The notes under the pieces were generated by a model. The model saw only the letters and a program-made list of their open reading frames with translations, was not told the origin of the DNA and searched no databases. A program made the translations under genes and the position numbers. Of a stretch of DNA of 64,000 nt, positions 36,876 to 38,693 are shown in pieces; positions within the stretch are counted from its first letter, which is position 1, and each line of letters begins with the position of its first letter. This DNA comes from an uncultured delta proteobacterium (GTDB lineage Bacteria; Desulfobacterota; Binatia; UBA9968). The DNA lies in NCBI GenBank assembly GCA_963737905.1, contig CAVTUQ010000026.1, positions 224,001-288,000 of the forward strand, given 5' to 3'.

Positions 36876-37280
36876 ATGCGGGTCGTCGGAATTGTCGTCG
36901 GCATATTGATTATCGTCGCCGGCTACTTCTGGGTGGTGCTCAAGTGGAACTACTCCACCGGTGAGCGTGCCGGCTGGGTGCAGAAGTTCTCGAAGAAGGG
37001 CTGGTTCTGTAAAACCTGGGAAGGCGAGATGGCGATGGTCTCGATGCCGGGCGCAGTGCCGGAGAAGTTTTACTTCACCGTTTGGGACGACGGGGTGGCC
37101 GGTGAGCTAAACAAGGTCATGGGGAAGCGTGTCTCTCTTCACTATGAAGAAAAGGTCGGCTTGCCCACCTCGTGTTTCGGCGAGACGCGCCACTATGTGA
37201 CCCGTGTGACCGGGGTGGAAGAGATTCCGCTCGCTCCCGGTATCGTCGTGCCGACACCGGCACCGTCAGCCGCGCCGTAA
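36876..37280 (+). CDS. Conserved membrane-anchored hypothetical protein
   Basis: N-terminal TM; 'YSTGERAGWVQKFSKKGWFCKTWEG', 'LHYEE...CFGET'. Confidence 0.75.
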   Translation: MRVVGIVVGILIIVAGYFWVVLKWNYSTGERAGWVQKFSKKGWFCKTWEGEMAMVSMPGAVPEKFYFTVWDDGVAGELNKVMGKRVSLHYEEKVGLPTSCFGETRHYVTRVTGVEEIPLAPGIVVPTPAPSAAP

Positions 37281-37481: not shown

Positions 37482-38693
37482 ATGCTAGAAAGCGGAATAT
37501 CTAAGCCCGAAGAAGTGAGCAAGCAGATTGCCAGAGAAGAGATTCTTGCCCGGTTGAGTGATCCGTCTCTTTTGCTAGTGAACGTGATGCCGAAAGAAGC
37601 ATTTGAGGAGGGTCACATACCGCGTTCGCTTAATTTGCCGCTGGCGGAGATCGAGACAAAGGCACGCCAGGTTTTTCCGGAGATCGGCCGGGAACTACTA
37701 ATCTATTGCGGTGGTCCAACCTGACCCCTGGGCCAGCAGGCGGTCGGCCTGCTTTTAGGTATAGGCTATAAAAATATCCGGCACTATGTCGGGGGCATGG
37801 CCGATTGGGTGGAGAAGGGCGGGCCGGTAGAAAAGATGGATTTGCCCGTGACGAGCCTCTCGCCCAGGCAATTCAGAAGAGGGGAGACTTCGAAAACTTG
37901 GTCCTGGTCGCGATGGCTCGACATGCTCGCCAATTGGCCGTTGGACCGTTTGGTTTTTTTCTGGCTGGGGATGATCCTTGCTTTTGGCTTCATTTATTGG
38001 GGCGCCGGCATAGGTATGGGGTGGGGACTGCAAGCCGGCAACACCTCCGTCAAGCCTGATTTCGGCGGTCTCGTCACTTCCATCTATTTCAGTTTTGTGA
38101 CGGCGTTGTCCATCGGCTACGGCGATGTGATTCCGGTAGGACCTTTGAGAATTCTTGCTATCGTCGAAGGGGCTACGGGTCTCTTGATCTTCGGCTGTCT
38201 GGTTTCAAAGCTCGTGTCTCGACGGCAAGAAGAGCTGACGGAGGAAATTCATCGCACGACATTCGAGGATCGATTGGATCGGGTGCGTACCAACCTGCAT
38301 CTGGTGTTTTCAGATCTGGGCGCTGTGCTACAACTGCAGATGGAGCAAGGCGCGTTGCCCGGGCAAGTTCTGCGGCGGCTTGAAAGTACAGTGCGGGTTT
38401 TTCGTGGGGAAATGCAGACGATTCATGATTTGCTGTACCGCGCTCAGGTCCTGCCTGACGAGGAAGCGCTAGAGTCGCTGCTGGCGAACCTGGCGATCTG
38501 TCTTCAGAGCGTTATCGACCTGCAAACTGCGCAACTAAACGGACAGCAGCGATCCCAGCCGCTTGACGCCGGGTTGCACGCCATCAGCAATCTCGCCAAC
38601 GAAATCTGCGGTGAATGCGTGCCACGCACCTATGCGCCCGCCATGAAACAGTGGATGGATCAAATTCAAGAACTCGCTCGCAAGATCGCGTGA
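37482..38693 (+). CDS. Rhodanese(Sec)-potassium channel fusion, predicted selenoprotein (403 aa, Sec81)
   Basis: ORFs 37482-37724 and 37797-38693 are in the same frame, separated only by TGA 37722-24. Read-through completes the rhodanese domain (GHIP...YCGGPT-U-PLG...GYKNIRHYVGGMADW...PVE), then TM1, pore helix, SIGYGD filter, TM2 and a helical C-domain with CGEC. Confidence 0.85.
37725..37760 (+). promoter_or_regulatory. Bacterial SECIS-like hairpin
   Basis: AGCAGGC-GGTCG-GCCTGCT perfect 7-bp stem (37735-37753) with lower stem CCTG/TAGG; the G-led loop starts 18 nt after the TGA. Confidence 0.78.

Follow-up and report, generated by a model that had tools for sequence, protein, structure and literature searches.

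A single TGA codon separates an open reading frame (ORF) for a seemingly truncated rhodanese from an ORF for a K+ channel in the same reading frame of an uncultured delta proteobacterium. Does this codon end a gene, or is it read as selenocysteine (Sec) within one longer gene, as a sequence-only reading had proposed, and what would the resulting protein do? From the comparisons described here, this is very probably one gene, annotated as two, in soil bacteria, with the TGA read as selenocysteine. The parts of the predicted protein are of known kinds; their combination appears to be new.

Sequences and comparisons

The window is the whole stretch of DNA that was analysed (64,000 nucleotides), and coordinates refer to it. 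Its source assembly (G000) is 87.5% complete. The comparison of loci drew on 103 in total, 23 of them from genomes and 80 from metagenomes (the best of 119). The locus scans used patterns of the window protein and thus favour the clade with TGA; orthologs with Cys surfaced only when 1.84 billion representatives were searched with a profile. For the analysis of the hairpin, 47 sequences dereplicated at 92% protein identity were aligned out of 73 full-length ones. The genomes G006 and G070 are the same (loci L032/L131, unpublished) and contribute one of the 47 alignment rows and one row each to the TGA, selA and selC tallies. Four other genomes (G012, G506, G531, G634) occur only in the background selA counts, and the conclusions are independent of these and of G006.

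One reading frame across the TGA

In the frame starting with the ATG at 37482, the sole internal stop is the TGA at 37722-37724 (codon 81), and the frame closes with a TGA at 38691-38693. Translation of 37482-38693 gives 80 residues, the TGA, then 322 residues, so that the read-through product (P0001) has 403 amino acids and, as had been claimed, both ORFs share one frame. Gene callers split this sequence into an 80-aa ORF and an ORF of ~298-321 aa. The stop lies within the active loop (YCGGPT-TGA-PLGQQAVGLL), and the Pfam Rhodanese match on P0001 (residues 19-111; 46.8 bits, cut-off 22.2) runs across it, in agreement with the proposal that the missing C-terminus of the rhodanese is encoded past the TGA. 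An Ion_trans_2 match covers residues 196-246 and is the only one in the source assembly. The positions given earlier for the filter SIGYGD and the tail motif CGEC are correct. The features of the locus are as follows:

37482..38693, +: read-through coding sequence, rhodanese(Sec) - 2TM K+ pore - helical CxxC tail, 403 aa
37536..37814, +: rhodanese domain of the CxxxxC/U-loop type, N-terminal, predicted cytoplasmic, residues 19-111 (Pfam, fold match)
37707..37709, +: Cys76, canonical rhodanese active-site position (Cys in 47/47; aligned with the first Sec of TsoB)
37722..37724, +: in-frame TGA, predicted Sec81 (93/93 TGA, Cys orthologs, second Sec of TsoB)
37735..37753, +: hairpin of the bacterial SECIS type with a 7-bp stem; its loop, GGUCG, occupies 37742-37746 and has an invariant G
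37941..38015, +: TM1, residues 154-178 (structure model)
38061..38126, +: pore helix and filter TALSIGYGD, with SIGYGD at 38109-38126 (Pfam, alignment, model)
38145..38342, +: TM2, extending as a single long helix (residues 222-287) into the cytoplasmic bundle (model)
38226..38690, +: five-helix cytoplasmic tail, without Pfam family or specific fold match
38607..38618, +: tail CxxC (CGEC, C376/C379), located in the loop that follows helix 4 (invariant in 47/47 and 76/76)

A search for a sigma-70-type promoter at the gene gave none, and terminator matches were at chance level. Upstream of the channel gene, a 134-aa ORF (36876-37280, +) without Pfam match is syntenic in only ~16 close loci.

Conservation of TGA at codon 81

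All 93 loci that cover codon 81 carry TGA there, and the other 10 of the 103 do not cover the codon; neither TAA nor TAG was found at this position among the 93. The terminal stop of the same gene varies (TGA 33, TAA 9 and TAG 5 of 47). TGA-bearing homologs reach down to ~44% identity and belong to several phyla, the named carriers (44-91% identity) coming from Candidatus Binatia (Binatota), related 'delta proteobacteria', Methylomirabilota, Gemmatimonadota and Acidobacteriota, among others. In whole-genome searches, 6 of 60 relatives carried the gene, as did 13 of 401 genomes of Acidobacteriota. These searches gave 20 further loci, of which 18 have TGA (13 new to the set) and two do not cover the site. 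The distribution is patchy, since the gene matched in none of the 400 further genomes searched from the window's phylum and in only 2 of 168 from Gemmatimonadota. One Acidobacteriota genome (G576) holds two TGA-bearing copies (L148, L153). Three loci (L036, L080, L178) are frameshifted copies, by assembly error or decay, in which the TGA is kept; for L080 the automatic pick was off-frame, and the homologous TGA visible just downstream was counted among the 93.

A base-call error at 37722 is excluded in practice by the 93 concordant loci. Also, contigs of independent runs cover the site, with no difference at 37722-37724 among the 40 of 201 differences listed. The gene is systematically mis-annotated as two fragments in databases: all 148 word-search matches (225-328 aa) lack the N-terminal loop, and of 110 short homologs, 108 terminate exactly before codon 81.

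Natural variants with Cys, Ser or Gly

The profile search gave continuous proteins with the same architecture, which bears out the proposed rhodanese - pore - CxxC fusion and shows that its parts are not always two separate genes. Twelve full-length orthologs have a whole rhodanese and a pore; 10 of them carry Cys at residue 81, one (P0154) carries Ser and one (P0156) Gly. P0239 and P0254 likewise have Cys at this position. The expectation of TGA or Cys at codon 81 thus held for every covering locus and for 10 of the 12 orthologs. The Ser81 lineage is real, since P0154 heads a cluster of 19 members; its tail is altered after the CxxC, and the cluster represents a natural loss-of-Sec control. 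A further 36 representatives start within the C-terminal half of the rhodanese, the pattern expected if an upstream stop had split them.

Position 81 is also marked by TsoB, a rhodanese/DsbD-like fusion with a UxxxxU loop. Its two TGA codons align on C76 and U81, and position 81 is therefore an already predicted Sec site in this rhodanese subtype. In the window's phylum, 17 of 251 genomes have TsoB loci over the cut-off, each listed with two TGA. The CxxxxU loop of the sequence-only reading was recovered, with the predicted Sec at its second position; the canonical catalytic position is Cys76.

A SECIS-type hairpin under synonymous-site selection

Downstream of the TGA, a hairpin with a 7-bp stem, a 5-nt loop (GGUCG) and a spacing of 17 nt has a mean energy of -11.2 kcal/mol. 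It had been placed 18 nt after the TGA; the hairpin itself was confirmed, but its stem starts 11 nt past the TGA and only the loop lies at +18. The bSECIS model, as given in the accessible part of its source, has a loop of 3-9 nt, a stem of 4-16 bp, a G in the first two loop positions, a spacing of 16-37 nt and a minimum free energy of at most -7.5 (PMC13188914), and the geometry of the hairpin lies within these ranges.

Across the 47 aligned sequences, the stem is paired in 93% of cells compared to 25-45% for slid controls, and the loop G at +19 is invariant. One stem pair occurs as G-C (30), G-U (9) or A-U (7) and never as A-C, with CAA always paired with TTR (7/7). The A-U state does not go back to one inherited event, since five changes on the tree are needed relative to the G-U rows, at least three of them forced. 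The in-stem Leu codon ends in G in 45 of 46 sequences, compared to a gene background of ~55%; for the Leu that comes next, the figure is 17 of 47. Against 200 synonymous recodings, the sequences had 6.51 instead of 4.94±0.15 pairs (null maximum 5.30) and -11.2 instead of -5.65±0.42 kcal/mol, and no recoding reached the observed value in either measure (0/200 each). The stem probability was 0.77 compared to 0.20 in 30 null sets, exceeding 0.5 in 38 of the 47 sequences. As the sequences are related, these null-set figures are not exact probabilities.

The significance of the hairpin comes from comparison across homologs and not from the single sequence, for which dinucleotide shuffles gave non-significant z values (-0.2 to -1.7). 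Given the 60-nt alignment, RNAalifold settled on a different, weak helix and did not return the hairpin as consensus. By the comparison with recoded sequences, the predicted hairpin is under synonymous-site selection.

Selenocysteine machinery

The genes selA, selB and selD are adjacent on contig C29 of the source assembly, all over curated cut-offs, and selD itself has an in-frame TGA. Of the machinery expected by the sequence-only reading, these three genes are present; selC (tRNA-Sec) was not found by Rfam, ARAGORN, pattern search or blastn in this incomplete assembly. Among the carrier genomes searched, 21 of 26 have selC (G015 and G064 being one assembly), and six fetched carrier tRNA-Sec genes were called SeC(tca) by ARAGORN. 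selA was present in 21 of the 23 genomes from which the genome loci came, in every one of the 13 carriers among Acidobacteriota compared to 301 of 401 Acidobacteriota overall, and in 56 of 61 relatives; its co-occurrence is weak evidence because selA is common in these phyla anyway.

Besides the channel gene and selD, the source assembly holds further TGA-bearing candidate genes. Two rhodanese-like ORFs with in-frame TGA in an active loop of the UxC type (C5:100719-101039, L162) and the CxU type (C40:2294-2608, L161) likely encode selenoproteins. Two formate-dehydrogenase-related loci below cut-off have one internal TGA each (C29:35266-36057, L157; C36:54396-55211, L159).

From these comparative data, insertion of Sec81 by read-through of the TGA is regarded as highly likely. 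That the TGA is instead a true stop is highly improbable; it would leave an 80-aa rhodanese fragment beside a channel with its own start, or the remains of a fusion in decay. Such a reading could draw on selC not being found in the source assembly and on in-frame ATGs at codons +13 (24/47) and +25 (41/47) as possible channel starts, but no Shine-Dalgarno-like motif precedes these internal ATGs, a weak point as the first ATG has no clear one either. Also against it stand the absence of TAA and TAG from 93 loci despite the varying terminal stop, the break that a stop would make in a folded domain within its active loop, the continuous Cys orthologs and the selected hairpin. Decoding of UGA as Cys or Trp by a mechanism other than Sec insertion, for which the missing selC is the only point, is likewise highly improbable: TGA also serves as terminal stop of the same gene, carriers have tRNA-SeC(TCA), the hairpin has SECIS geometry, and the site coincides with a Sec of TsoB.

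Rhodanese, pore and tail

The full-length structure model has a pLDDT of 80 and a pTM of 0.44, and the arrangement of the domains was therefore not read from it. Pfam, alignment and fold agree on a rhodanese with an active-site Cys; the best fold matches were BH2092 (3nhv; Z 17.4, rmsd 2.6, 121 aligned) and 3gk5 (Z 16.8, rmsd 1.6, 100 aligned). Sulfurtransferase rhodaneses usually have D-x-R after strand 1. In the alignment this is replaced by N/D-V-M/L, and sulfurtransferase activity is therefore not to be assumed. A disordered linker (residues 120-140; pLDDT <50, conservation 0.31) is followed in the model by a short helix (142-150), TM1 (154-178), the pore helix (194-209), the filter and TM2.

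The TM1 - pore helix - TM2 architecture of PF07885 was found by both Pfam and model, and both termini are predicted to be cytoplasmic by the established topology of 2-TM channels. The filter reads TxxSIG[YF]GD, with GYGD/GFGD and the pore-helix Thr invariant in 47/47. The second Thr of the signature TxxTxGYG is Ser in 47/47 and Thr in some homologs; Ser is found at the same filter position in the K+-selective EAG/hERG channels.

In the model, TM2 and its extension form a single helix that ends at residue 287, and four more helices come after it. The most conserved stretch of the protein lies here (residues 241-280; 0.92-0.94 per column), and H257, R264, R267, H273 and R299 are invariant or near-invariant. 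The tail alone folds confidently (pTM 0.83). It has no Pfam family and no Foldseek match at E<=0.001; a fold search gave generic helical bundles only, the best of them (Z 11.8, rmsd 3.0, 138 aligned) below what is meaningful for bundles. The protein showed no sign of an RCK, CNBD or Kir domain. The tail looks like an unnamed cytoplasmic domain of K+ channels.

Only two pairs of Cys/Sec are invariant in the 47-row alignment, C76/U81 and C376/C379, the latter also in 76/76 of a wider set. The CxxC is kept in homologs without visible rhodanese (P0197, P0202, P0206, P0212, P0215, P0268 and locus L151, which has no rhodanese in the upstream frame), so that both modules are not strictly coupled; it is lost in four distant rhodanese-less homologs (P0278, P0287, P0292, P0299). 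A complex prediction with four tail copies and one rhodanese of the Cys ortholog P0151 scored 0.02, which is uninformative either way.

Two groups of relatives were observed beside these. A distant channel family (P0268, P0272, P0275, P0278, P0287, P0292, P0299) has the same helical tail and no rhodanese. Another lineage (P0163, P0168, P0198, P0239) has a Cys rhodanese, and the filters of P0163, P0168 and P0198 are degenerate. P0168 and P0163 carry an AhpC/TSA-type region C-terminally, past the tail; P0163 ends exactly one residue short of the Cys in the peroxiredoxin-like motif of P0168, which suggests a Sec TGA at its end.

Gene neighbourhood

Neither a shared operon nor a redox or sulfur gene neighbourhood was found across phyla, synteny occurring only within lineages; many neighbourhood clusters were shadow frames. 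Metal-resistance genes did not recur beside the channel gene. At one Gemmatimonadota locus (L035:2801-3952), the channel gene starts a few bases after another ORF, which by a motif resembles a cysteine desulfurase; this arrangement did not appear among the other loci listed.

Proposed function and alternatives

In the proposed mechanism, SelB and tRNA-Sec would insert Sec at position 81 using the hairpin just downstream, and each subunit of a tetrameric 2-TM K+-type channel would carry an N-terminal rhodanese. Cys76 and Sec81 would form a redox pair passing from selenol/thiol to selenenylsulfide or persulfide upon reaction with oxidants or reactive sulfur species (sulfane sulfur), and could exchange with the CxxC of the tail. 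The redox state of the tail bundle would move the inner gate, as the helix of TM2 runs straight on into the bundle. Thereby, K+ flux (membrane potential, cytoplasmic pH) would be tied to thiol/sulfur redox stress, by analogy with Kef. Synthesis of the channel would depend on Se supply, as there is no conserved internal ribosome site. The link to redox chemistry draws on the two invariant pairs as the only invariant cysteines, on the AhpC/TSA domain fused in the related P0168 and on the loss of the CxxC in the four distant homologs that lack a rhodanese.

As a whole, a tetrameric 2-TM K+-type channel with a Sec81 rhodanese and redox gating is the best explanation and reasonably probable. Given Sec, gating through the C76-U81 pair and the tail CxxC is slightly favoured. 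The widest formulation, a K+ channel with a redox relay that turns reactive-sulfur/peroxide status into K+ flux, with Se-conditional synthesis, in several phyla of uncultured soil bacteria, is evenly balanced.

Two other explanations accept the Sec channel. The CxxxxU loop and/or the CxxC might bind Zn, Cu, Hg or As(III), making the channel metal-gated or the site structural; this is unlikely. The conserved His and Arg residues of the tail and the persistence of the CxxC without rhodanese would fit, as would the predicted Sec transporter proteins, which in the accessible part of a recent inventory are mostly linked to heavy-metal or metalloid resistance (PMC13188914). Against metal binding, no metal-resistance genes recur beside the channel gene, and the AhpC/TSA domain of P0168 suggests peroxide/thiol chemistry. 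Quite unlikely is a Sec rhodanese that acts as a tethered enzyme (sulfur/selenium transferase or reductase) without a role in gating, or a pore that is not K+-selective. Channel-tail homologs without rhodanese and the flexible, poorly conserved linker are compatible with tethering, but the fusion is kept over ~40% identity and several phyla; likewise, the Ser replacing the usual filter Thr and the degenerate filters of P0163, P0168 and P0198 are opposed by GYGD/GFGD and the pore-helix Thr being invariant in 47/47.

Comparison with known systems

A 2026 inventory comprises 119 prokaryotic selenoprotein families; in its accessible part there is no ion channel, none of its five rhodanese forms is CxxxxU, and 'channel' and 'potassium' are absent from the main text (PMC13188914). 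Both words are likewise absent from the accessible text on deep-Sep (PMC12013277). In the literature listings and opening lines of abstracts searched, neither a selenoprotein channel nor a rhodanese-K+ channel fusion was found. No model of NCBIfam release 20 exceeds its cut-off for the channel protein.

The closest known system for the rhodanese part is the predicted selenoprotein TsoB (NF045694, rhodanese/DsbD fusion-like, 'rhodanese form 5'), which has the same six-residue loop fused to a second, DsbD-like module. TsoB is said to stem from Haft and Tolstoy 2025. With Sec at both loop positions and a membrane module, it is a precedent for membrane-fused Sec rhodaneses, which the sequence-only reading had described as reported to be soluble proteins. 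Identity over the rhodanese is ~23-28% and the score is 28.3 bits at a cut-off of 805; TsoB has two Sec and no K+ pore, whereas the channel protein has a CxxxxU loop with one predicted Sec, a pore and a CxxC bundle. By score, number of Sec and DsbD-like partner, the channel protein is not a member of TsoB. Other Sec rhodaneses (forms 1-4; NF041203, CxU) share the fold with Sec near the active site, but their motifs differ (UxxS, UxxG, CxU), and none is listed with a channel fusion in the accessible sources; the score against NF041203 is 16.5 bits (cut-off 115).

The core of TM1, pore helix, GYGD and TM2 is shared with prokaryotic 2-TM K+ channels (PF07885), and the best PDB sequence matches were Lmo2059, the SthK pore and KirBac3.1. 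In contrast to these channels, an N-terminal rhodanese and the unmatched tail take the place of RCK, CNBD or Kir domains. Predicted Sec transporters (YeeE/YedE, P-type ATPase, SaoP, SO_0444) likewise combine membrane transport with Sec in the accessible descriptions, but are not ion channels and have unrelated folds. Kef (KefB/KefC) offers a functional parallel: according to the accessible parts of the sources, its release of K+ during electrophile stress is governed by thiol chemistry. Kef works as a K+/H+ antiporter, its KTN domains detect adducts of glutathione, and it has neither homology to the channel protein nor Sec. For prokaryotic K+ channels, the physiological gating signals are mostly unknown. 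If confirmed, the protein described here would bring ion channels into the selenoproteome and give prokaryotic K+ channels an apparently undescribed sensor architecture, and its natural Sec, Cys, Ser and rhodanese-less versions would form a ready series on what selenium adds to a sensor.
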